The notes under the pieces: model-generated
Told to the model about the DNA's origin: nothing
Databases searched by the model: none
Seen by the model: only the letters and a program-made list of their open reading frames with translations
Shown: piece after piece, positions 3,105 to 22,040 of the stretch
How the letters are laid out: the number at the start of each line of letters is the position of its first letter
Numbering within the stretch: the first letter of the stretch is position 1
Made by a program: the position numbers and the translations under genes
DNA from: Tolypothrix carrinoi HA7290-LM1
GTDB taxonomy: Bacteria > Cyanobacteriota > Cyanobacteriia > Cyanobacteriales > Nostocaceae
Length of the DNA: 22,040 bases
Direction: 5' to 3'
NCBI GenBank assembly: GCA_019358935.1
Contig: JAHHIK010000127.1
Span: 1 to 22,040 of the forward strand

Positions 3105-3234
3105 AGGGAAGAGAAAAAATGTGCTGGCTCCATACTACAATATAATACAACATGTTTAACTGCAAGTTTCTTACCTTGCCACCAATTGATATCATGTTCA
3201 GTTAAAAACTTATTATTTTAATTTTTTATTGCTC

Positions 3235-3672
3235 ATGCTCACGTTTACCCAACGTCAACCGCCAAATATTGCTACAGAAGTTACTTTAACTCTTGCACTC
3301 ACAGCAGAAGAACGCACTCGCAGTCGTCATCGCTTTGAAACGAAAGATGGAGAAGTTGTATTTTTGCGTTTACCGAGAGGAACGGTGTTACATGATGGCG
3401 ATATTCTTCAAGATGAAACAAATAGCAATTTCATTAGAATTGCTGCCAAACCAGAACCTGTTTTAACTGCACTTGCGGAAACACCGTTATTATTATTACG
3501 GGCGGCATATCATTTGGGAAATCGTCATGTACCATGTGAAATTACTGCAAGTTATTTACGCTTTTTGCCCGATTCTGTTTTACGCTCAATGTTGGAACAA
3601 TTGGGGCTAAAAATTCAAGAAGAAATTTTACCTTTTCAGCCAGAAATGGGCGCTTATGGACACACTCACTGA
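3235..3672 (+). CDS. ureE: Urease accessory protein UreE
   Basis: [19 protein letters not shown] and PFQPEMGAY motifs. ATG at 3235 (alternative TTG at 3229). Confidence 0.95.
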
Positions 3673-4336
3673 GAGCAATCTTTTATGTCTTTTACAGTTA
3701 GCGAGTCCGGCTTTACCTGTGGGAGCATATAGTTATTCTGAAGGATTGGAAACGCTGGTAGAAAATAACGTTATTAATAATCAAGAAAGTTTACAGCATT
3801 GGTTGAAAGCCGAATTGCGTTATGGGGCGATTCGGTTAGAAGCGGCGGTGATGGTAAGAGCTTATAATTGTGTGATTAGGAATGATTTAGAAGCGCTATC
3901 TCGTTGGAATATGTGGTTAACTGCGGCAAGGGAAACTGAAGAATTACGCAACTCTAGTTTACAAATGGGGCGATCGCTTATCCAATTATTTGCTAAACTA
4001 CAACCACAAATCATGCCTATTGTCAATGCTGTGGGTAATTGCAATTATGCGATCGCTTTCGGCATTGCGGCTGCTTACTGGGATATCAATATTCAAGCCG
4101 CAATCTTAGGATATCTGCATAGCTGGGTAAGTAATTTAATCACTGCTGGCGTGAAACTTATACCTTTAGGACAAACAGCAGGACAGTTGTTATTGCTGAA
4201 TTTACAACCACTAATTAACGATGCAACAGCGTCCATTCTCGCCTTAGAAGATGATAACCTTAGTTGTTGTAGTTGGGGTCTATCTTTAGCAAGCATGGCG
4301 CATGAAACCCAGTATACAAGATTATTTCGCAGTTAG
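3656..4336 (+). CDS. ureF: Urease accessory protein UreF
   Basis: [27 protein letters not shown] and C-terminal [11 protein letters not shown]. Confidence 0.97.
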
Positions 4337-4337
4337 G

Positions 4338-4555
4338 ATTGGGGAATGGAAAATGGGGAATGGAAAATGGGGAATAGGGAATGGGGAATGGAAAATGGGG
4401 AATGGGGAATCGGGCAGGGGGGCAGGGGGGCAGTTCTTGGCAGGAGGAGAAATATTTCTTCTTTCTTACCGATGCCCAATGCCCTATGCCCTATGCCCTA
4501 TGCCCTATGCCCAATGCCCAATGCCCAATGCCCAATTACCAATTACCAATTACCA
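4338..4555. repeat. STRR heptamer arrays (GGGAATG/GGAAAAT, then TGCCCTA, TGCCCAA, TTACCAA)
   Basis: Tandem 7-mers fill the ureF-ureG gap, with a G-rich block facing a C-rich block; typical of heterocystous cyanobacteria. Confidence 0.93.
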
Positions 4556-5152
4556 ATGAACCCATTTCGAGTAGGTGTAGCAGGTCCGGTAGGATCGGGA
4601 AAGACGGCTTTGGTGGATGCTTTGTGTAAGGCGATGCGTGAAAAATATAATATTGCCGTCGTGACAAATGATATCTATACTCAGGAGGATGCACAATTTT
4701 TGGTGCGTTCTCAAGCTTTGAGTGGCGATCGCATTTTGGGTGTAGAAACTGGTGGTTGTCCCCACACAGCTATTCGCGAAGATGCTTCGATGAATTTAGC
4801 AGCAATTGAACAGTTAGAAGTGCGTTTTCCTGATTTAGATTTAGTCTTTTTAGAAAGTGGTGGCGATAATTTGGCAGCTACCTTTAGTCCGGAATTAGTT
4901 GATTTAACTATTTACGTTATTGATGTTGCTGCTGGCGATAAAATTCCTCGCAAAGGTGGTCCCGGCATTACTAAATCTGATTTATTAGTGATAAATAAAA
5001 TCGATTTGGCTTTCTATGTAGGTGCAGATTTAAATGTCATGGAACGCGATGCTAAAAAAATGCGCGGTGAGAAACCTTTTATTTTCACTAATTTGAAAAC
5101 GCAATCGGGATTAGCAGATATAATTAAGTTTGTATCTACTAATATTTGTTAA
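4556..5152 (+). CDS. ureG: Urease accessory GTPase UreG (198 aa)
   Basis: GPVGSGKT P-loop, ETGGCPH, ESGGDNL and NKID. True start ATG 4556; the upstream 70 codons are STRR repeats. Confidence 0.97.
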
Positions 5153-8765: not shown

Positions 8766-9235
8766 GATGCGTGAAAAATATAATATTGCTGTTGTGACGA
8801 ATGATATCTAGAAGGAAGGAGGATGCACAATATTTGGTGCATCCTCAAGCCTTGAGTGGCGATCGCATTTTGGGTGTAGAAACTGGTGGTTGTCCCCACA
8901 CAGCTATTCGCGAAGATGCTTCGATGAATTTAGCCGCAATTGAACAATTAGAAGTACGTTTTCCTGATTTAGATTTAGTCTTTTTAGAAAGTGGTGGCGA
9001 TAATTTGGCAGCTACCTTTAGTCCGGAATTAGTTGCTGCTGGCGATAAAATTCCTCGCAAAGGTAGTCCCGGCATTACTAAATCTGATTTATTAGTGATA
9101 AATAAAGCAGATTTAAATGTAATGGAACGGGATGCTAAAAAAATGCGTGGTGATAAACCGTTTATTTTTACTAACTTAAAAATTAAACAAGGATTAAAAG
9201 AGGTAATTGAGTTTGTTTTTCAAAATATTTGTTAA
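8766..9235 (+). pseudogene. ureG: Second, broken ureG copy
   Basis: Near-identical to 4633-5152 in the middle. It lacks the P-loop, has a frameshift near 8810, and has in-frame deletions of DLTIYVIDV (27 bp) and IDLAFYVG (24 bp). Confidence 0.93.
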
Positions 9236-13462: not shown

Positions 13463-13780
13463 GTGGAAGAACAAATACGATGCTTTGTAATTAGCCGCAA
13501 AATTCTGCGGCAATTTTGTGAAGCACACGCAGATGCTTGTGATGCGCTTTACGATTGGTATAAAGTCGCTACTAAAGCAGAATGGAAAAATCTTGTTGAT
13601 CAACTAGCAATTTACATAAAAGCTGAAGCGGTTGGCAACTTCACTGTTTTTAATATAAAAGGAAACCACTACCGTTTAATTGTCGATATTGTTTACTCAA
13701 GCCAGAGAATCTATATCAAATACGTTCTGACTCATGCTGAATACGATAAGGATAAATGGAAAGATGACCCGTACTTTTAA
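13463..13780 (+). CDS. higB: HigB-family toxin (start region irregular)
   Basis: VISRKILRQF, VFNIKGNHYRLI and THAEYDK motifs. Confidence 0.85.
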   Translation: MEEQIRCFVISRKILRQFCEAHADACDALYDWYKVATKAEWKNLVDQLAIYIKAEAVGNFTVFNIKGNHYRLIVDIVYSSQRIYIKYVLTHAEYDKDKWKDDPYF

Positions 13781-14162
13781 TCCTGAATTTTATGGTCAAT
13801 TACTAGCCAAGTATCAGCCCAAAACAATTACCACAGAAGAAGAGAACGAGCAAGCGATCGCTCTCGCTCAAGATTTAGAACATCGTCCTAATCGAACCCC
13901 GGAAGAGGAAACGCTTTTAGAACTTTTGGTAACACTAATCGAAAAGTTTGAAGAAACTCATTACCCAATCCCTCAAGGTACACCCCATTCGATGCTACTA
14001 CACTTGATGGAAGCGCGGGATATTGATCCAAAAGCATTAGTTGGGGTAATTGGCTCATTGGAAACTGTTTTTGAAATCATTAATGGCGAAAAAAATATTA
14101 GTAAATCTCAAGCAAAAGCGCTTGCTGAATTATTTAAAGTCAATGAAAATTTGTTTATATAG
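13764..14162 (+). CDS. higA: HigA-family antitoxin (HTH)
   Basis: LELLVTLIEKFE and LLHLMEAR...EIINGEKNISKSQAKALAELF; overlaps the higB stop. Confidence 0.88.
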   Translation: MTRTFNPEFYGQLLAKYQPKTITTEEENEQAIALAQDLEHRPNRTPEEETLLELLVTLIEKFEETHYPIPQGTPHSMLLHLMEARDIDPKALVGVIGSLETVFEIINGEKNISKSQAKALAELFKVNENLFI

Positions 14163-14241: not shown

Positions 14242-14713
14242 ATGAATGAGTTGGTTCCTAAGTTACAAGTAATAAATGTTAGTAAGTCCTATGCTAATTA
14301 TTTGGCAAATAATCGAGTAAAAATGACGATTCAGCGGGGTGAAATTCATGCTTTGTTGGGACAAAATGGAGCGGGTAAAAGTACTTTGATGAAGATGATT
14401 TACGGGTTGGTGCGTCCGGATGCTGGAGAGATTTTTTGGGAGGGGGAAAAAGTTAATTTTAATAGTCCAGCACAGGCAAGAATGCTTGGTGTGGGTATGG
14501 TGTTTCAGCACTTTTCTTTGTTTGAAAGTTTGACTGTTACGGAAAATATTGCTTTGGCACTTCCGAAGGGTGATTTCTGAAGATTTGGATGAGTTGTTTG
14601 TTTTATGCGATCGCCTGGGTGTAATCTACAAAGGACAGCTTTCTCCCCTAAAGTCCATACAAGAGACTAACCGAGATGAAATCGGGCAATTAATGGGGGG
14701 AATTGGCGCATGA
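14242..14713 (+). pseudogene. Nucleoside/sugar ABC ATPase with large internal deletion
   Basis: N-terminus GQNGAGKST and VFQHF. From about 14570, in another frame, comes the family C-terminus VISEDLDELFVLCDRLGVIYKG...EIGQLMGGIGA* ending at 14713. Confidence 0.9.
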
Positions 14714-14748
14714 TACCTTGAGAAAGTAATTCCCATAAAGATGATATT

Positions 14749-15045
14749 TTATCCTTCAGGTGTCCATTTTCGACTACATTTTAATAAATCGCCTTCGACT
14801 TTGTAATCACATTTTTCCAAAAAGGTTTGTCCTAAAAGACCTGTTGTTCTTTCTGGTGCGATCGCTACCAATACATTATCCACTTTTGCCCCACCAACTT
14901 CTACCGAATTAACAAAACCGACACCCCATTCTACTGTTTGGTTATTTGCCACTGTGAATGGTATTTTATCTATTACTTGCACTTTCAATGCATTTGCCAT
15001 CTTTTGGGTAATAACGGTAGCGCCAGCGCCGGTATCCAAAATCAT
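14749..15045 (-). pseudogene. Retropepsin-like aspartyl protease C-terminal fragment
   Basis: ILDTGA catalytic motif and GLLGQTFL. The 5' side abuts permease sequence on the opposite strand with no promoter or N-terminus. Confidence 0.75.
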
Positions 15046-15676
15046 CGGTGCGAATCAAGTCGCTACCGGTTTAGCCCTGACTATTTTTGCTTCGGGACTC
15101 AGTGCTTTTGTCGGTGCTGACTATGTAGGCAAAACAATCACCGGACTGCAACAAATGAACAAATCAATACCTCTATTGAACCAGGATATTGTAGTATATT
15201 TATCAATCATCTTGGTGATTTTAGTATCATGGTTTTTGCGAAAAACACGGTCAGGGTTGGTGCTGCGAAGTGTGGGTGAATCTCCAGAAGCAGCGGATGC
15301 TTTGGGTTTGCCTGTTGTCAGAGTGCGCTATTTTGCGGTAATGTTTGGTGGAGCGATGGCTTTCTTTAGCGCATTTGTTATCTCTCGCTTGCGTATACGC
15401 CGCTGTGGGCGGAAAATATGACAGCAGGACGAGGATGGATTGCGATCGCTCTCGTAGTTTTTGCCACCTGGAAACCGATTAAAATTCTCTTGGGTGCTTA
15501 CTTATTTGGCGGCGTAAGTGCGATACAGTTGATTGTGCAAGGACTGGGATTTGATATTTCTCCTTATCTTTTATCTGCGTTGCCCTACTTAGCTACTATC
15601 GTGGTATTGGTGATTATCTCACGCGATGCCACGCGCATTCAACTAGTAGCACCCGCATCTTTGGGTGAACCTTTTC
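15046..15676 (+). pseudogene. ABC nucleoside permease, 5'-truncated, frameshifted near 15380 and interrupted at its 3' end by the element
   Basis: ANQVATGLAL, GLVLRSVGESPEAADALG, AYTPLWAENMTAGRGWIAIALV and APASLGEPF. Confidence 0.9.
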
Positions 15677-16878
15677 ACTCTAGATAAATCGTTTTGACTA
15701 ACTCTTTAAATAGTAGCTTTGCAGCTTTGGCGCTAATACGCGATCGCACTAATCGAATCGGACGCCCCGCCGCTTTTTCAGCATCCAACTGAGAACCCAG
15801 CGCTGCACCAATCTCATTATCAAGACGGCAGCGCTTAACCTCGATGCGGGTGAAAACCCATTGCCAGAAAGCAATACGGCACAAATCAGAACCACCGACA
15901 ATTTTAATTTTACTTTTGTCACCGCTTGCTTCTAGGGACGGTGCAAGCCCTAGAGACTTCTGAAATCGGCGTAACGAAAGGTAGCGTTTAGTTGGCTTTC
16001 CAGACTTTCGACCCTTGCTAATTCTTACCTCTGGCTTACCGTCAGCACCAAAGTAATTTTCCAAGGGGTAAATTTGACTGAGGATAATTGCCTCTAATCG
16101 CAACCCGAAACCAAAGGTTTTAAATACCTGGCGATAAGCCGTAAATTTCGGAGCGGTCAAAAGCTGCTGTAGTTCGACCTCAATACTGTGTTCTTCTCGC
16201 TGTAAGTCACATAAACGTCTTGCGTGATGCCGAACTGTTTCAGTAATGTCCAATCCAGCAGAGCGATCTAATATCGCGTCGTATCGTTTGATGAATGCGT
16301 TCCCCACACAACCACCCCCACAATAAGGGCACGTCACCATCAATTGCCCGTCGAGAATTTACGTGTGCGACTTCTGGGAATTGCCAAGCTAAGTCTTGAC
16401 GCAAACGATTGATAATTGGCGATTGCACCCGGTTGAGGTGAGCAAGTCGCAACACCAATTCTCTAATGCGGGTTGTGGTGAAATCGCGAATTTGTACAAA
16501 GCGCCTGGGGGAATCGAAATAGTCAAAGTAGTAACAGGCGAGTGCTAGTGCGTCGGCATCGTCATCTTTGTCGGGCAGACTTAATTGGTGTTCCCGGTAA
16601 TTTCTCAACTCTTTGTGTCCCACAAGTCTGACCTCGACCCCGGTACGAGCCAAGTGTGTTCCCCAAAGTTTTGAGTAATTTACACCAGTCGGCTCCATGA
16701 GTGCAATATCAGGATGCAGCGCCAGCAGTGCTTTTATTCCCTCGCTGTTGGCGCTAAACGACATGAACGGACATTCATAGTAAAATTGACGAGGATCGCT
16801 TGGCTTGCTTTCGAGCAAGCACGCTCTAACTGAGGACTTGCTAATATCAAGCCCCAAAATTCTTTTATTCTCTTGCAT
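15675..16878 (-). pseudogene. IS110-family DEDD (bridge) recombinase, about 400 aa, split by one frameshift near 16295
   Basis: LGLDISK, MEPTG and KDDDADA in the RuvC-like domain; GLAPSLEASG serine loop in the C-terminal domain. The two ORFs join at WLCGER / KRYD. Confidence 0.88.
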
Positions 16879-16909
16879 TGGGTGTGGTTGTTGGTTATTA
16901 ACCCCGTAT

Positions 16910-17112
16910 AAAAAGCCTGCGAATCACCCAAAAGCACGTAGCCTAACTCACTCTTAAGGCTGCGTCAAAACGGGAACCTTGACGCTACGAGGCAAGCTGT
17001 AGAAAGTGCAGTAACCGAGCTTGTGAAAAGGTAAAAGCAGTAATGCTTGATTCGTCCTGAAAGCCCTAAATTACTGCACTACTTACAGGCGAATGATTTG
17101 GACTCGATCCGC
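16910..17112 (-). ncRNA. Putative IS110 bridge RNA
   Basis: A 10-bp stem AGUGCAGUAA/UUACUGCACU encloses an internal loop with UCAGGACGAA and ACCUUUUCAC, the latter matching junction 15669-15678. A second domain holds AGAGUGA matching the element end. Outer stem GCCUGU/GCAGGC is followed by a U-tract. Confidence 0.8.
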
Positions 17113-17163
17113 GACTCCCAATATGGGAGTTTCGCCAGTTTTTTAGTCCGGCTCGTCAGGCGG
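17109..17163 (-). ncRNA. Type I hammerhead ribozyme
   Basis: CCGC-CUGACGA-GCCGG(ACUAAAAAA)CUGGC-GAAA-CUCCCA(UAU)UGGGAG-UC^GCGG. The full conserved core and three stems are present, with predicted cleavage between 17113 and 17112. Confidence 0.92.
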
Positions 17164-17164
17164 T

Positions 17165-17356
17165 TTACCTAAATTGCTCGTGAAGTATCGCCTCGGCATC
17201 TCTTACAAAGCCTTGCGCTTTTTGATAAAGTTCTGAGTTTGGGAACTCTTCTAAACTTACAATTTCTAAAGCCTTATCAATTAAAGCTTTGGAATGCTGA
17301 CAAGAGTGCCAAATAAGATAAAAATCCCAACGCGGGATCTGAGTGTAGATCGTCAT
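17165..17356 (-). CDS. Hypothetical protein (63 aa)
   Basis: ATG directly follows the upstream stop; last ORF before the ribozyme. Confidence 0.7.
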   Translation of the reverse strand: MTIYTQIPRWDFYLIWHSCQHSKALIDKALEIVSLEEFPNSELYQKAQGFVRDAEAILHEQFR

Positions 17357-17581
17357 TCATAGCTGTTGGCTAATTTGTGCATAGGCGTTAATCATGTCTT
17401 CACGTTGTTTTGGAGTCATTTGTTTAAATTGTTCATCTGCTCTATCAGATAAATACTGCATCCAATAATCTAGAGTTTGACTGCTGTTATGTGCGATTAA
17501 TTGACAGGCAATTCCGGTGAGCAAGGAATTAGTCAGAAACTCTTCCTTGTCCATTACGATTTCATCGTTTTCTATTCGCAT
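17357..17581 (-). CDS. Hypothetical protein (74 aa)
   Basis: TAATG coupling with the upstream ORF. Confidence 0.7.
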   Translation of the reverse strand: MRIENDEIVMDKEEFLTNSLLTGIACQLIAHNSSQTLDYWMQYLSDRADEQFKQMTPKQREDMINAYAQISQQL

Positions 17582-17772
17582 TAAAATCCCTCTGGAACGT
17601 CATCATCTTTGATTACGGGCGGGTAAAGTTGCGCCCAGACAAAGGCTTTCAGTTCCTCTCCAGCCAGGTGAGGGTCTTCCCCTTCGCTAATAATGGCGAT
17701 CGCTTCAAAAGTTTCGCTCTGATAATTCCCCAGGTTTTTTACTCGCTTGTAAGTGATAGTTTCGATTTTCAT
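17581..17772 (-). CDS. Small phage-like hypothetical protein (MKIETITYKRVKNLGNYQSE...)
   Basis: The NLGNYxS motif and acidic DDDVPxxF tail resemble small phage early proteins; start set at ATG 17772. Confidence 0.7.
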   Translation of the reverse strand: MKIETITYKRVKNLGNYQSETFEAIAIISEGEDPHLAGEELKAFVWAQLYPPVIKDDDVPEGF

Positions 17773-17847
17773 GGTGGTGATAAAATACACTTGTCTGAAT
17801 TGTCAAAGGCGATCGCACTCTCACACAAGGGCGCGATCGCACTTAAA

Positions 17848-18384
17848 TTACCATCCCTGTTTTTCTCCTTCCTGCAACAGCTGTTGCAATACCTGTTTAC
17901 CCCTCTCCCAGTTCCTTCCTCCCAGTCCTAAAACCGACTCAATAATGTAAGTCTCGGACTTCCCAACTTCCATCAAACTTTTCACAGCAATATATAGCTG
18001 TTTTTGGGAAGTGTCAGTGGAAGTTTCAACCGGATGCTCGGCTGATGGCTCTTGCACCAAGTGTTCTAGGGATTTTTCTAGTTCCTGCCTAACTTCCGGG
18101 CTGTAAGTGGGCGTAACTAAGTACATTTCTTTTAATGCCTGCTCTTGCGAGTAAGCCTGCAACGACAAATCAACTACCTCCATCTCCTGATTCATTGCAG
18201 CCATTGCACCGCGACGCGCTTCTTGCAACACCAATTGACGACTATAACGCACTGACTCAATTGATGTTGCAATTGCCACAACATGAGCCACACCTTTACC
18301 AAACTTTCCTATTGGGGCAAGTGCAACCAGCCAAGCAACGGCGGCAGTGGCAAGTAAACTATTTGCTCTTATCCAAGTAACCAT
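17848..18384 (-). CDS. Hypothetical membrane-anchored coiled-coil protein
   Basis: N-terminal hydrophobic segments and helical C-terminus; overlaps the upstream gene. Confidence 0.75.
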   Translation of the reverse strand: MVTWIRANSLLATAAVAWLVALAPIGKFGKGVAHVVAIATSIESVRYSRQLVLQEARRGAMAAMNQEMEVVDLSLQAYSQEQALKEMYLVTPTYSPEVRQELEKSLEHLVQEPSAEHPVETSTDTSQKQLYIAVKSLMEVGKSETYIIESVLGLGGRNWERGKQVLQQLLQEGEKQGW

Positions 18385-18638
18385 TGCAATACCCCTCCAG
18401 TTATCAAGGCTATTTTGATGGCGATTAACAATCCGTAATAGTCCTGTTGTTTGAGTTTGAGGTAGCCAGCAATGGCATCGTCAGCTAACCAAGCCATTGC
18501 TGTTAAGGCAAATAAAACAATTTGGATTGCAATTGAGGAATAGCGCAATGCAGGATGCAATGAACCAACCCACACGATCGCGCTCTCAGTGATGCACCCC
18601 AACAAAAACCAGCAAGCCAGATGCATCACCTTGACCAT
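18369..18638 (-). CDS. Small hydrophobic membrane protein (about 3 TM)
   Basis: Three hydrophobic stretches; stop/start coupling at 18638. Confidence 0.72.
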   Translation of the reverse strand: MVKVMHLACWFLLGCITESAIVWVGSLHPALRYSSIAIQIVLFALTAMAWLADDAIAGYLKLKQQDYYGLLIAIKIALITGGVLQWLLG

Positions 18639-19150
18639 TAGTAGCGCTCCTTCGCCTTAGCTTTGAGTTCTTCAATGCGCTGTTGCGCTCCTGCATCAGC
18701 GCGGTCTAGCCCGTTGTTCATGCGAACGTATTCGGGGCGTTGCGCGTGCAACTTCTTACCCAATCGGGTGTTTGAGCGTAGCTTGGTTAATTCGCTCTCT
18801 GCCACGTTGCCCTGATACTTTCGGTGAGCGACATGCACCGTTGCATCGGCTTTTTCAATCTTGCCTAAAGATTTGTAAGCGCGTTGCGATTGCCTTGCAC
18901 CTTCAGTTTTCTCTGTTGCAAGTCTTTTCAGGGCATCGGCTTCAGGTTTATTGAAGTATCTTGGTTTTTCAACAATCGGCGCGGTGCGAATGCTTTCCCA
19001 AGTGCCGGGGTTAGTGGGGTTGATAACTTCGGGGTTGGTTGGTTGTAGCACCACATCTTTATTAATGGCATGACCCCCAGTAGTGAGCGTACTACTGCTA
19101 CTAGATTTATTCCCCTTTATCCGGTCGGTGATTCTTGCTAAAATTCCCAT
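18638..19150 (-). CDS. Basic helical hypothetical protein (170 aa)
   Basis: GGAG RBS upstream; operon position. Confidence 0.75.
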   Translation of the reverse strand: MGILARITDRIKGNKSSSSSTLTTGGHAINKDVVLQPTNPEVINPTNPGTWESIRTAPIVEKPRYFNKPEADALKRLATEKTEGARQSQRAYKSLGKIEKADATVHVAHRKYQGNVAESELTKLRSNTRLGKKLHAQRPEYVRMNNGLDRADAGAQQRIEELKAKAKERY

Positions 19151-19162
19151 AGGTTCCGTCTC

Positions 19163-19414
19163 CTAATTGCACAAGGTTTTTTTGACTTCTGAAAGCTGTT
19201 TGGCTTGGGCTTTGAGATGTTCAATCTGGGTGAATTCTGTTGATTGATGCACGCTGATTCCCCCAATTGCCAAGCCAGCAACGAACAGCAACACCGCTAT
19301 GGTCAGTAGTGGTGTTGTTTGTTTTGGGGGTTCAACTTCAGGTGGTAACTGAGGATGCAAGTACCCAGTAAAGGGAACTACAACCCGCGATTGGTGATCT
19401 TTAGCTTTCTCCAT
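19163..19414 (-). CDS. Single-TM hypothetical protein
   Basis: One TM helix (LLTIAVLLFVAGLAIGGI); overlaps the upstream gene. Confidence 0.7.
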   Translation of the reverse strand: MEKAKDHQSRVVVPFTGYLHPQLPPEVEPPKQTTPLLTIAVLLFVAGLAIGGISVHQSTEFTQIEHLKAQAKQLSEVKKTLCN

Positions 19415-19850
19415 CTGGCAGCCTCATATAGTTTGGGAGTAGCGAGAAAGTACCAATAGATAAGGCGTTTTGAGTGCTTTGCTCAATTAGGGTTTTCTCC
19501 GCTTCAGTCGGATTGGTTCGCATTTGCTGGATGCGTCGAACTACACGAGTTGGTAACTCTTGCCAAAAGCGCTGTGCATAGTAGCTAGCAGCATCGTCGA
19601 GCAAGGTTTCGATTAATGTGTCGGCTTCGGGTGAAGCGTCTTCGGTTGCACTGATTGGGCGGGTTTTTAGAAACTCTACACCAGTAGAAGTCCAGAGCTT
19701 GCGACCGTCTGGTTCGATGACGAAGTGTAGGTTTTCAATAAACTTGCCAGGGTGACGGCTCATCCAGCTACGAATAGTCCCTTCTGGGATGCCTGTAACT
19801 TCAGCCGCTTCTGGGGTGGTGTATTTTTTATCGGGTTGTTTGGCTGGCAT
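19401..19850 (-). CDS. MerR/Xis-like HTH DNA-binding protein
   Basis: YTTPEAAEVTGIPEGTIRSW...GRKLWT winged-HTH pattern. Confidence 0.75.
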   Translation of the reverse strand: MPAKQPDKKYTTPEAAEVTGIPEGTIRSWMSRHPGKFIENLHFVIEPDGRKLWTSTGVEFLKTRPISATEDASPEADTLIETLLDDAASYYAQRFWQELPTRVVRRIQQMRTNPTEAEKTLIEQSTQNALSIGTFSLLPNYMRLPDGES

Positions 19851-19954
19851 TTTCTACGCTGGGGTTGTTTTGATTTATCTCATCTGCCCAAATAATTAGC
19901 CCCCGTCTATCAAGTTCTTTCAAGCTTCTATCGTTAATTTCTTCAACAATAAAA

Positions 19955-20212
19955 TCAGGCAGGATGCGAATAATTAAGCGAGTAAGGTGTTGGAGGATTT
20001 CCATAATTAGTTTTCAACTTTGGCTTACAAGGTTCTCCGTCTTCGTCTACTGCTTCAGCAAAGTAATAAGGGTCTACATCCTCTGAGTGGACTTGACCAA
20101 CCTCGCAGTTATATACAAACTCTCCTGTCGTCAAAGTGTCGTAAACGTTGATAGACTGCTCTGGATGCCACTTTTCCAGAGCATCTTCCAAATATTCGCC
20201 TCTTATTTTCAT
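19955..20212 (-). CDS. Acidic hypothetical protein (85 aa)
   Basis: AAGGAG RBS before ATG 20212. Confidence 0.7.
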   Translation of the reverse strand: MKIRGEYLEDALEKWHPEQSINVYDTLTTGEFVYNCEVGQVHSEDVDPYYFAEAVDEDGEPCKPKLKTNYGNPPTPYSLNYSHPA

Positions 20213-20451
20213 TCGTATATTCTCCTTTTTACGTGTTGGTGAGCAGATTTTGGGCTTGTTCGGGGGCAATTGGAACTAACTGAAAGTGCTTTAAAGCTAA
20301 TTCGAGTTGGACACTTTCGACGCTGGGGCGCAAATCTCACTCGCTTAACTGCTGGCAGGTCTTTAAAAAGCACTACGGGCTAGCAGGCTGCCATCTCTGC
20401 TTGGTTTGCGGTTGGGGAGCAATTTAGTTTTGTCTTTACGAATCTAATGTT

Positions 20452-20479
20452 AGTATAATGCAAAGACATAACCTGTCAA
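20452..20479 (-). promoter_or_regulatory. Sigma70-type promoter for the leftward operon
   Basis: TTGACA-N16-TATACT on the minus strand. Confidence 0.7.
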
Positions 20480-20532
20480 CAGTTTTGTATATACAAAAAA
20501 ATTTTGTAAAGATAAAATGGGGCTATAGTTCA

Positions 20533-20919
20533 GTGAAAACGAAGAATGGCACGACCCAAGACGCTAGCGGACGACGCAAAAACAGTAAACGTAAGAATGA
20601 GCCAGTACGACTGGGAGAATATGGACAAAATAGCCCAAATGAGGGGACTGAGCAGGTCGGAAATGCTGCGCTTGATAGCACAGGAGAAGATACCGCTTGG
20701 TCAGATAGCCACAGAAAAGCTAATCCTGGGAAAATCCTTGAGCGTCTCGAGCTGATAGAAAAAACTTTTTTATCTTATGTGCAGGGACATCAGCAGCGTC
20801 TTGAGACGCGACTAGACGAAAGCAAGACCATAGAAACTATTTTCAAAGACGAAGTCGCGGCGCTCAAACAAGAAATTTATCATTTAACTTCGGACATTCC
20901 CGAAGACCATACAGAATAA
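20533..20919 (+). CDS. Coiled-coil hypothetical protein overlapping the RHH gene in another frame (start uncertain: ATG 20458 or GTG 20533)
   Basis: Protein-like helical C-terminus GKILERLELIEKTFLSYVQGHQQRLETRLDESK, with the stop directly followed by a terminator. Confidence 0.6.
   Translation: MKTKNGTTQDASGRRKNSKRKNEPVRLGEYGQNSPNEGTEQVGNAALDSTGEDTAWSDSHRKANPGKILERLELIEKTFLSYVQGHQQRLETRLDESKTIETIFKDEVAALKQEIYHLTSDIPEDHTE
20546..20755 (+). CDS. Ribbon-helix-helix (CopG-like) regulator
   Basis: MARPK...TVNVRMSQYDWENMDKIAQMRGLSRSEMLR pattern. Confidence 0.8.
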   Translation: MARPKTLADDAKTVNVRMSQYDWENMDKIAQMRGLSRSEMLRLIAQEKIPLGQIATEKLILGKSLSVSS

Positions 20920-20952
20920 AGCCGTCCCCGCCTTGCGGTAGGACGGCTTTTT
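20918..20952 (+). terminator. Rho-independent terminator
   Basis: AAAGCCGTCC...GGACGGCTTTTT. Confidence 0.8.
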
Positions 20953-21019
20953 GATGGGTGCGATCGCCATCGAGGAGTGCGATCGCGTCCAATAACTAAT
21001 ACCCATTTAACCAAAACCT

Positions 21020-21271
21020 ATGAAACAAACCAGAAGAAGCGCACTTCATGAGGCTGCCCGGTTAAGCCCACTTTTCCAAGCAACAGAAATAGCGGGAGTC
21101 GAACTAACTAAACTTATCGACTTTATCGAATATCACAACCCGGACATAGACAGAGCCACTGCCACATTGACCGCCGCATTCGTCTTGTCCGAACTACCCA
21201 CTTTTCTTCTGCACAGCCCAAAAAATATGCAGCGGTTAAGCGCGATCGCACTCTGGTTTTCTCAAAGATAA
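21020..21271 (+). CDS. Hypothetical protein (83 aa)
   Basis: ORF bounded by two hairpins. Confidence 0.6.
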   Translation: MKQTRRSALHEAARLSPLFQATEIAGVELTKLIDFIEYHNPDIDRATATLTAAFVLSELPTFLLHSPKNMQRLSAIALWFSQR

Positions 21272-21278
21272 AAAATTA

Positions 21279-21320
21279 AAAAGCCCCCCAGAACTTTAGC
21301 AAAGACGGGCGGCTTTTATT
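21279..21320 (+). terminator. Possible terminator
   Basis: AAAAGCC...GGCTTTT with an imperfect stem after the stop. Confidence 0.5.
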
Positions 21321-21422
21321 AAGTTGATTGAACTATAGGTACTTACGTATCTGCTTAATCCGCTCACAAACCGCTTTCAATCACGCTCTTAATCGCTTTT
21401 ATAAGAAGAATGCAAACTTCTG

Positions 21423-21500
21423 CAATCACGCACTTACTTTGTACAATCACGCACTTACTTTGTACAATCACGCACTTACTTTGTACAATCATGCACTTAC
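21423..21500 (+). repeat. 21-bp direct repeat array CAATCACGCACTTACTTTGTA (3 perfect plus a partial copy), iteron-like
   Basis: Units start at 21423, 21444, 21465 and 21486; the array ends 4 bp before ATG 21505. Confidence 0.9.
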
Positions 21501-21504
21501 AATT

Positions 21505-22040
21505 ATGCCACAAAATCAATTAGTTTCTTTCCCCAATCGTGAAAATAAAGTTTCAGTAAAGTACAACAAACCTCATTGCATTATCCCCGTATCAGACATT
21601 ACATGGATAACGCAACAAGTAAAAGCAGTTCAGACATTGTGGAATGAATGTTGGGTATCAGACCCATTTGGCAGTCGATGGGAGAAGCTATCAACCAACC
21701 TCACAGAAACAGCATTTAGGTTAGCTAGAAAGATTTTATACGCAGCTGGGCTATTTGAATTTAAGCGCGATACCTGCATACATGACAGTCGAAAAACAGC
21801 GGGCTGGTTGGTAATTAATCTTCATGGCGCTAGAAGAATTAAAGACTTTTGGTGCAGCGAAGAAACTGAAACGACATCCGACATAAACACGGCGACATCC
21901 GACATAAACACGGCGACATCCGACATAAACACGGCGACATCCGACATAAACACGGCGACATCCGACATAAACACGGCGATATCCGACACAAAATCAACGG
22001 TGGAAATTGTTGAAACCCCTGAATTTTCAAGCGTTTCAGA
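21505..22040 (+). CDS. Putative replication initiator (wHTH-like), partial at window end
   Basis: Manual translation MPQNQLVSF...WNECWVSDPFGSRW...AFRLARKILYAAGLFEF...WLVINLHG is open to the edge and has upstream and internal 21-bp arrays. The function is inferred. Confidence 0.65.
   Translation, partial: MPQNQLVSFPNRENKVSVKYNKPHCIIPVSDITWITQQVKAVQTLWNECWVSDPFGSRWEKLSTNLTETAFRLARKILYAAGLFEFKRDTCIHDSRKTAGWLVINLHGARRIKDFWCSEETETTSDINTATSDINTATSDINTATSDINTATSDINTAISDTKSTVEIVETPEFSSVS
21872..21992 (+). repeat. Intragenic 21-bp array CGACATCCGACATAAACACGG (5 perfect plus 1 degenerate)
   Basis: Units start at 21872, 21893, 21914, 21935, 21956 and 21977 and encode TSDINTA repeats. Confidence 0.92.

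Follow-up and report, generated by a model that had tools for sequence, protein, structure and literature searches.

An IS110-family bridge recombinase as the probable integrase of a provirus-like element in the cyanobacterium Tolypothrix carrinoi

Introduction

IS110-family recombinases of the IS621 group are directed by a guide RNA encoded upstream of the recombinase gene, two loops of which read the target and the donor; these share a two-base core, and movement passes through a circular intermediate (PMC11208160). In solo IS110 elements a circle-junction promoter drives the guide (PMC13604230). The present analysis concerns contig JAHHIK010000127.1 of Tolypothrix carrinoi HA7290-LM1 (GCA_019358935.1), termed here the window, a stretch of 22,040 nucleotides in which an IS110-family recombinase gene and a predicted bridge RNA stand at one end of a cargo-bearing element. 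Sequence comparison indicates that this is very probably a provirus-like element, the circular form of which would be integrated by the bridge-RNA-guided recombinase. Judged from its protein and guide the system is a member of the IS110 family, yet it is not an insertion sequence. It shares with IS621 a recombinase with DEDD and serine domains, a guide 5' of the gene and the lack of target duplication beyond the core. It differs in its GA core (CT in IS621), in a recombinase of about 400 amino acids (aa), in a left end separated from the guide by 7-18 kb of cargo, and in the hammerhead core that precedes the guide (PMC11208160).

The idea of an IS110 gene serving as a phage integrase is not categorically new. 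Family members serve, or are presumed to serve, as integrases of the Neisseria phages Nf/MDA (PMC7058167) and of the Thermus phages phiOH16, Zuza8 and Zuza27 (PMC11437467), where, as here, the gene sits at one end of the provirus. These are inoviruses of 6.5-8 kb with a rolling-circle Rep, tiny coat proteins and a morphogenesis ATPase (PMC7058167, PMC11437467), whereas the elements described here reach 8-19 kb and have a winged-helix (wHTH) Rep, an optional endolysin and an unmatched 110-aa protein. Nf1 targets the dRS3 repeat (PMC7058167), in contrast to at least 28 different guides in this family, and the accessible parts of PMC7058167 and PMC11437467 describe neither guide RNAs nor ribozymes for these phages. 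In the accessible sections 2.4 and 2.5 of a preprint (10.64898/2026.10.21.760802), bridge-RNA clusters and a sub-threshold prokaryotic hammerhead cluster appear separately and are not linked. As far as the accessible part of PMC4524478 goes, that paper is unrelated. The open literature yielded no paper on this family or on the pairing of hammerhead and bridge RNA; supplements and subscription papers lay outside the search, and COMPASS clusters may include the motif.

Boundaries of the element

The recombinase gene lies at the very edge of the element. Its stop codon (15675-15677, minus strand) holds the GA core, within the element end CTAGAGT-GA, the left donor (15675..15683, minus strand). 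The near junction (15667..15676, minus strand) joins this core (15676-15675) to the right target flank AAAGGT, which is complementary to the right target guide. The interrupted host gene encodes an ABC permease, the last codons of which have been replaced by the insertion (3' end, 15418..15676, plus strand): GEPFRPxH in empty relatives has become GEPFHSR. A single contig of reads from run X1 bridges the near junction without differences; this run is possibly the source sample and gives no independent support for anything beyond the frame lesion described below. The end sequence CTAGAGT-GA recurs at 11 other places in the genome.

The permease end is uninterrupted in three of 40 relatives, where it reads GAACC(G/T)TT-TC-GTCCTA with neither cargo nor recombinase. 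A fourth relative (G010) retains only an 11-base remnant of the element end, and no cargo match was found in the 13 kb that follow it. The DNA after one of these empty sites, that of G001, corresponds to another contig of the Tolypothrix genome, C59, at 96.7% identity over 1,498 bases. The match begins 362 bases from the end of C59, and those terminal 362 bases encode a small membrane protein and terminate in GGGGAT-TC, which is the family's right donor in reverse. The far junction, with a second GA core, is located at 51558-51559 of C59. The element consists of position 15677 to the end of the window, an assembly gap and the end of C59, which amounts to at least 6.7 kb, and it is probably 13-19 kb long, like its relatives. 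The window is the whole of contig C127 in a genome of 184 contigs and 7.96 Mb, so that its end is an assembly break. The assembly contains no contigs below 10 kb, and among the genome's other contigs none continues past the end of C127, except for paralogues which break at or near the same place.

The cassette at the end of a further contig, C47, is 95% identical to that of C59 with a different flank, and this flank matches the guide of a paralogue on C12. Taken with the two guides, the C59 and C47 junctions therefore reveal two copies, two targets and two guides in one genome. On both contigs a further, donor-like motif of joined ends lies 137 bases in from the far end (C59:51690 and C47:58963; loci L084 and L085), at the place where other copies end, which is perhaps the trace of an earlier tandem insertion. 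Circle-type junctions of joined ends with the GA core are present in assemblies other than this one, among them those of a permuted contig (L107) and of a head-to-tail pair (L116/L117); these belong to relatives only, and none was seen for the window copy.

The first-pass annotation, made from the letters of the window, had placed the element's start at 15675, which is exact, and had proposed that an IS110 bridge recombinase is the integrase of a large cargo bounded by it, that a far junction should exist and that new targets could be reached through the guide. The C59 junction, the empty sites and the two-sided covariation of guides set out below bear out these proposals. It had also named two findings that would count against it, and neither was encountered: no relative searched carries the cargo at this locus without the recombinase, and no separate integrase bounds the cargo, the second recombinase of complete relatives lying mid-element beside its own palindrome.

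Guides, targets and donors

The predicted bridge RNA (16890..17112, minus strand) forms two stem-loops that have large internal loops (folding z -2.9); its 5' end is given by the predicted ribozyme cut and its 3' end is approximate. The target-binding loop (17023..17060, minus strand) contains a left target guide at 17058-17052 (AGGAC-GA) and a right target guide at 17032-17025, and the variable columns of the non-coding region fall within this first loop. For the feature at 16921..16954 (minus strand), the evidence includes the joint change of donor guide and donor in three loci (L057, L062 and L063). The first-pass annotation had seen the nine-letter left target half TCGTCCTGA only as the guide itself. 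It is indeed absent from the window outside the guide (17052-17060), but the true left flank is TC-GTCCTAC, against which only seven of the nine guide letters match, core included; a search for the nine-letter string would therefore have failed on a longer contig as well.

Forty-four elements were examined for agreement between right guide and flank, and 38 were parsed; those dropped were L037 (no guide), L058 (unparsed) and L045, L061, L067 and L088 (no junction found). Guide and flank match at 163 of 190 positions, against a mean of 82.6 and a maximum of 109 in 20,000 shuffles. Four or five of five positions agree in 31 of the 38 elements, among which 28 different guides occur; kin among elements are not independent, and different guides count as separate events. 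For the left end, 67 of 87 guides were parsed and 43 loci had at least 8 kb of upstream sequence. The locus's own left guide together with the right-donor motif was found in 26 of these 43 (mean 0.8 and maximum 5 in 2,000 shuffles). The 26 guide-matched relatives span 7.8-18.8 kb, with a median of 14.5.

In one genome (G165) a single guide is associated with two sites, matched at five of five and four of five positions (L053 and L054), an instance of natural mismatch tolerance. In a sub-lineage (L101, L107 and L143) the left target guide has the sequence of the main lineage's donor end, and one such end is where L143 is located; these elements are apparently aimed at the junctions of sister elements. 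The region C98:22714-24403 is identical to the window over the guide and most of the recombinase gene and then becomes C12-like; it adjoins cas7/cas5-like genes.

A hammerhead motif in front of the guide

A predicted type I hammerhead ribozyme core (17109..17163, minus strand) directly precedes the bridge RNA. Read from 17163 to 17109, it comprises stem I, CUGACGA, stem II, GAAA, stem III, UC and the return strand of stem I, so that both the catalytic core and the NUH triplet are complete. Like type I hammerheads (RF00163) it has the CUGANGA and GAAA boxes, a GUC/GUA triplet and three stems with stem I open; it differs in its longer stems II and III and in its position at the 5' end of a guide RNA. 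Cleavage is predicted after the C at 17113, which would leave a guide with a defined 5' end, at the tail of an operon, 235 bases before the recombinase start codon.

A strict pattern for the motif occurs in 36 of 67 loci (the triplet is GUC in 33 of them and GUA in three) and in none of 2,442 control windows from the same loci, whilst a search anchored on the core bases finds a hammerhead in 59 of the 67 (56 distinct). Positions 2-5 of stem III are paired in 95.5% of cases (shuffles 48%, maximum 66%) and positions 2-4 of stem II in 89% (shuffles 54%, maximum 67%), both stems covarying through four pair types. The motif is absent from 13 sister loci without an IS110 gene and from 13 other IS110 genes. 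In a distant sub-clade (L171, L172 and L175) the first box reads, by eye, CUGAUCC instead of CUGANGA, which marks either a variant or a dead ribozyme.

The recombinase

A single additional base, within 16290-16296, divides the recombinase gene (15675..16878, minus strand) into two frames (16878-16240 and 16343-15675), with the DEDD domain in the first frame and the catalytic-serine domain in the second. The same lesion is present in the paralogue on C98, while the paralogue on C12 is intact, and is the only intact one among the own-genome copies seen. A contig of X1 reads over 16250-16615 shows zero differences at a depth of 1,029, compared with about 510-530 for single-copy parts, which implies that both copies carry the lesion. 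Programmed frameshifting is ruled out, given that no slippery run is present at the site and that 80 of 87 homologous loci have a single open frame; the split is a lesion, not recoding. The DEDD RuvC-like domain (PF01548) scores 33.3 bits against a cut-off of 29. The Tnp domain (PF02371) remains under its cut-off (E 0.0065), its SG serine being nonetheless invariant in 80 of 80 intact homologues, and the D-E-D-D residues together with this serine are retained in 79-80 of the 80 intact genes.

Homologues of the recombinase are present in 57 of 301 genomes of the order (E 1e-30), and named homologues come nearly all from filamentous cyanobacteria; matches in the sequence atlas are confined to unnamed cyanobacterial clusters. 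No PDB sequence match to the recombinase was found. The phylogeny suggested by the first-pass annotation was obtained by a quick method. It places 79 element recombinases on one side of a long branch, apart from an outgroup of 13 proteins (12 other cyanobacterial IS110s and that of phiOH16, LC210520); IS621 and IS1111, with the latter of which a comparison had been proposed, were left out. The in-group was collected by similarity, so its unity is partly built in. That the recombinase does not group with that of phiOH16 points to a separate recruitment.

Exchange with tyrosine integrases and partner genes

In complete relatives the Rep-like gene is followed by a gene for a short tyrosine recombinase, in some cases by one for an amidase-glucosaminidase endolysin, and by a distal module that comprises a 110-aa protein, collagen-repeat proteins and several unmatched proteins. 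With the 110-aa protein as bait, 80 loci were collected (L116 and L117 being two views of one contig). An IS110 gene lies within reach in 25 of the 80, and in 20 of the 41 loci with a full 10-kb flank. In five sister loci (L106, L122, L125, L126 and L150) its slot is occupied, in the same position and orientation and with the same distal module, by a tyrosine integrase of 371-393 aa (PF00589, four of the five over the Pfam cut-off); the kind of integrase is left unassigned in the 16 remaining full-flank loci. Unlike the window type, these sisters have primase-helicase replication genes, no hammerhead and no short tyrosine recombinase. L125 possesses the window's own cassette of five operon genes (encoding 149, 83, 170, 89 and 178 aa), which recurs in relatives with either kind of integrase. 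Replacement of one integrase by the other in the same slot, in one direction or the other, had been surmised from the window and is seen directly in these sequence comparisons.

A MerR-like gene of this cassette, encoding the 149-aa protein (a weak HTH/MerR match), had been put forward as a directionality factor. It occurs at two of 25 bait-selected and two of 28 recombinase-selected loci, and in L125 as well. On this co-occurrence it is rejected as such a factor; the gene belongs to the exchangeable cassette rather than to the recombinase. The short internal tyrosine recombinase, by contrast, is present at 24 of 25 IS110 loci and at none of the five tyrosine-integrase loci, with its residues R, K, H, R, H and Y retained in 34-36 of 36 proteins. 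It does not bound the cargo, and is present in the own-genome copies on C79 and C120. A conserved palindrome with 13-base arms lies mid-element between it and the 110-aa gene, and the simplest reading of this recombinase is that of a multimer resolvase.

Early operon, control region and Rep-like gene

About 290 non-coding bases separate the recombinase gene from a leftward operon (17165..20269, minus strand) of ten small open reading frames (ORFs), of 63, 74, 69, 178, 89, 170, 83, 149, 58 and 104 aa, most of which abut or overlap; the coupling reported in the first-pass annotation is real, although it had counted eight. The best promoter-like site of the region (20452..20479, minus strand; 11/12 consensus) points into this operon, the number of such sites being at chance level when compared with shuffles. 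On the plus strand, two overlapping ORFs of 153 aa and 69 aa (20458..20919) are conserved together in relatives. The second encodes the ribbon-helix-helix (RHH) protein of the control region that had been recognised there (20546-20755; RHH_1, E 5.5e-4, 20.2 bits against a cut-off of 20.5). An 83-aa ORF (21020..21271, plus strand) is also found upstream of Rep-like genes in three paralogues.

The Rep-like gene (21487..22040, plus strand) is cut by the contig end, its homologues being of about 300-360 aa. It encodes a winged-helix domain, a repeat-coded linker and a helical C-terminal domain. A full-length homologue, 96% identical over the N-terminal domain, is predicted to fold in the same way, with the linker disordered. 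Two 21-bp arrays, the putative iterons, are present: 3.7 copies in the leader (21423..21500, plus strand) and 5.8 copies within the linker (21872-21992). The leader unit also precedes an unrelated Rep-like gene in the paralogue on C86, which makes the intragenic array the likelier of the two to be a Rep-specific iteron. The placement of that intragenic array recalls lambda O. The architecture of winged helix, repeat-coded linker and helical C-terminus would fit an initiator of the lambda-O or DnaD type. The fold comparison that had been recommended for the cargo gave no Foldseek match for the Rep model; structural matches include the Cdc6/Orc1 wings and the DnaD domain, tied with unrelated rows at Z 6-7. 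The same slot in sister elements is filled by DnaB-type or DUF3854/VapE primase-helicases, and this position would be the strongest argument for a Rep function.

Indications of a virus

The choice between integrative plasmid and satellite or prophage, left open in the first-pass annotation, inclines towards the latter, since complete relatives have the look of proviruses and not of plasmids. A temperate virus is suggested by the gene order, the endolysin and the fibre-like proteins, and it is fairly probable that the elements are viral. The 110-aa protein, modelled with a pLDDT of 95.5, forms 511 clusters at 50% identity with constant length. It has no fold match in the PDB (best Z 2.4) or BFVD, although absence from such lists is no proof of a new fold. 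A P-loop ATPase is present in nine of 25 loci and is located in the early operon. The spacers of three CRISPR arrays of the Tolypothrix genome gave no match among the collected loci.

Among distal-module relatives, a ParM-like gene occurs at L115:4882-5901 and L104 lies on a record labelled as a plasmid; some of these relatives may have a non-integrating lifestyle. A distal-module remnant directly follows nif genes at L108:6529-10330.

Neighbouring genes and other copies in the genome

Upstream of the target, the ABC transporter of the host is decayed (14242-15421), with a truncated ATPase, an opposite-strand aspartyl-protease fragment and a permease split at about 15418. Within this ABC operon lies what is presumably a HigB/HigA-like toxin-antitoxin pair (13463-14162). 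Further upstream are genes taken here to be ureE/ureF/ureG-like (3229-5152), with a presumed second, partial copy of ureG at 8801-9235.

The same genome contains at least a dozen copies or fragments of the family (on C98, C12, C49, C30, C145, C178, C55, C21, C45, C147, C102, C79, C120 and C119). The decayed copies show short replacement tracts of 5-12 bases, some of which are common to several copies.

Discussion

Sequence comparison establishes the boundaries, the covariation of guides with targets and donors and the exchange with tyrosine integrases. In the mechanism proposed on this basis, the bridge RNA would pair with about seven bases to the left and 7-8 to the right of the target GA core, and with the joined element ends. 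The guide would be transcribed at the tail of the long leftward operon, and the hammerhead would cut its 5' end free, together with the recombinase message. Such a cut would replace the circle-junction promoter of solo IS110s, since a guide 7-18 kb from the circle junction could not use a promoter there. The circle would replicate from the winged-helix initiator, the short internal tyrosine recombinase, acting at its own palindrome, would resolve multimers, and the distal module would build a particle around the 110-aa protein. The window copy would be unable to make its own recombinase; the intact paralogue on C12, which has the same donor guides, could act in trans.

A number of observations weigh against this account. 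The recombinases of the window copy and of C98 are frameshifted, and the interior of the window copy is missing from the assembly, leaving its own structural module out of view. Right guides match at three or fewer of five positions in seven of the 38 elements. C98 carries the guide of the window copy beside a flank that matches at two of five positions, a misfit arising from either gene conversion or assembly; the flanks of L036 and L042 fit the guides of other copies in the same genome, and further misfits are L073, L082 and L078/L079, the last pair probably misparsed. Left ends were not found in 17 of the 43 loci within the sequence examined. The hammerhead pattern occurs in only nine of the 20 most distant loci. 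Its top Rfam match, Hammerhead_1, spans the whole model (1-45 of 45) at 16.6 bits against a gathering score of 34, and was obtained from a 151-base scan only, a scan of 15500-22040 having given no match at E 1. The best structural match of the Rep model is a chitosanase (Z 7.2), with winged-helix and DnaD-like matches level at 6-6.6, no higher than unrelated ones. Portal, terminase, known capsid and Zot proteins were not found among 39 proteins scanned with Pfam and PHROG, and an amidase is present in only five of 25 recombinase loci.

It might be supposed that a solo IS110 element came to lie by chance beside unrelated mobile DNA, as a composite or nested insertion. The genome does contain many decayed pieces of the family, some of them end fragments only, and five of 28 loci selected by the recombinase alone (with 8 kb upstream) show no cargo match. 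In a solo insertion sequence the recombinase gene would stand alone between short non-coding ends, whereas here no left end lies near the gene and the ends enclose at least 6.7 kb; in relatives far ends match their own guides 7.8-18.8 kb off. Family cargo is present at the other 23 of the 28 loci, and two of the five cargo-less ones have guide-matched ends 6.8 and 10.9 kb upstream. A chance association is thus exceedingly unlikely, and at the window locus the C59 junction and empty sites rule it out, short of misassembly. The hammerhead-like motif could conversely be a conserved structure that does not cleave, for instance one that binds a protein or stabilises the bridge RNA at its 5' end. 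Besides the low Rfam score, this would accommodate a stem I of only four pairs, almost invariant and of little information, the failure of the single-sequence minimum-energy fold to give the hammerhead, and an extra base after the CUGANGA box in 12 of 56 hammerheads. Every catalytic core base and the GUC/GUA triplet are retained, however, despite variation in stems II and III across four pair types, and conservation of precisely these unpaired bases is what catalysis leads one to expect. A non-cleaving role is for these reasons improbable, and a self-cleaving ribozyme is preferred.

The part played by the short tyrosine recombinase is less clear-cut. Rather than resolving multimers, it could be the partner, in place of the hammerhead or an Xis-like protein, that confers directionality, the bridge recombinase inserting the element and the tyrosine recombinase being needed for excision or circle maturation. 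A provirus would need help with excision, because IS621 excises about 2,000-fold less well than it inserts (PMC13604230), and both its co-occurrence with the IS110 gene and its conserved catalytic residues are compatible with such a role. Yet its palindrome lies mid-element. Nothing like it was seen at the ends, the conservation of which guide pairing accounts for, and circle junctions bear a GA core of the bridge type; common ancestry with the wHTH Rep type may also lie behind the co-occurrence. Directionality by this route appears unlikely. It is somewhat easier to entertain, albeit still unlikely, that the bridge recombinase integrates a non-viral replicon or a satellite, the distal genes forming a surface or secreted structure or borrowing a helper particle. 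No recognised virion hallmark is found in the 39 proteins: HK97 or DJR capsid, portal, terminase and packaging ATPase families gave no match, nor did the Zot/pI ATPase, rolling-circle Rep and 30-90 aa coat protein families, with the interior of the window copy missing from the set. Pattern scans of IMG/VR with the recombinase and with the 110-aa alignment, and a tblastn search of INPHARED with three proteins that included both, returned nothing; one distal-module relative is on a plasmid-labelled record, and the endolysin is found in a minority of bait loci (13 of 80). Against this stand the constant length of the 110-aa protein and the collagen-repeat fibre-like proteins and endolysins of relatives, and the same scans of 39 proteins turned up no relaxase or type IV secretion families. 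The order of integrase, early operon, repressor, replication, lysis and conserved distal module is moreover that of a temperate virus, which remains the favoured interpretation.

It is attractive, if tentative and a little short of probable, to regard these elements as an undescribed and widespread family of cyanobacterial viruses with a new-fold capsid protein, one large lineage of which may have swapped its tyrosine integrase for a cassette of hammerhead, bridge RNA and recombinase. The ribozyme would then have freed the guide from the circle junction, allowing a cargo of 8-19 kb and letting a few mutations in the guide change the attachment site, also to the ends of resident sister elements.

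Bridge recombinases are known from insertion sequences of 1-2 kb and are being engineered for large DNA, whereas the natural lineage described here would move 8-19 kb. Its dozens of natural guide-target pairs, with their GA core, offer a ready set of orthologues and pairing rules. As a provirus must excise efficiently and IS621 does so poorly, the family also brings the question of directionality within reach of tests, a candidate partner having been named. Maturation of a recombinase guide by a native self-cleaving ribozyme would, if true, represent a new route of biogenesis and a new job for bacterial hammerheads. For the filamentous cyanobacteria themselves, the elements constitute a common, uncharacterised virus-like family, the most conserved protein of which matched no solved fold.

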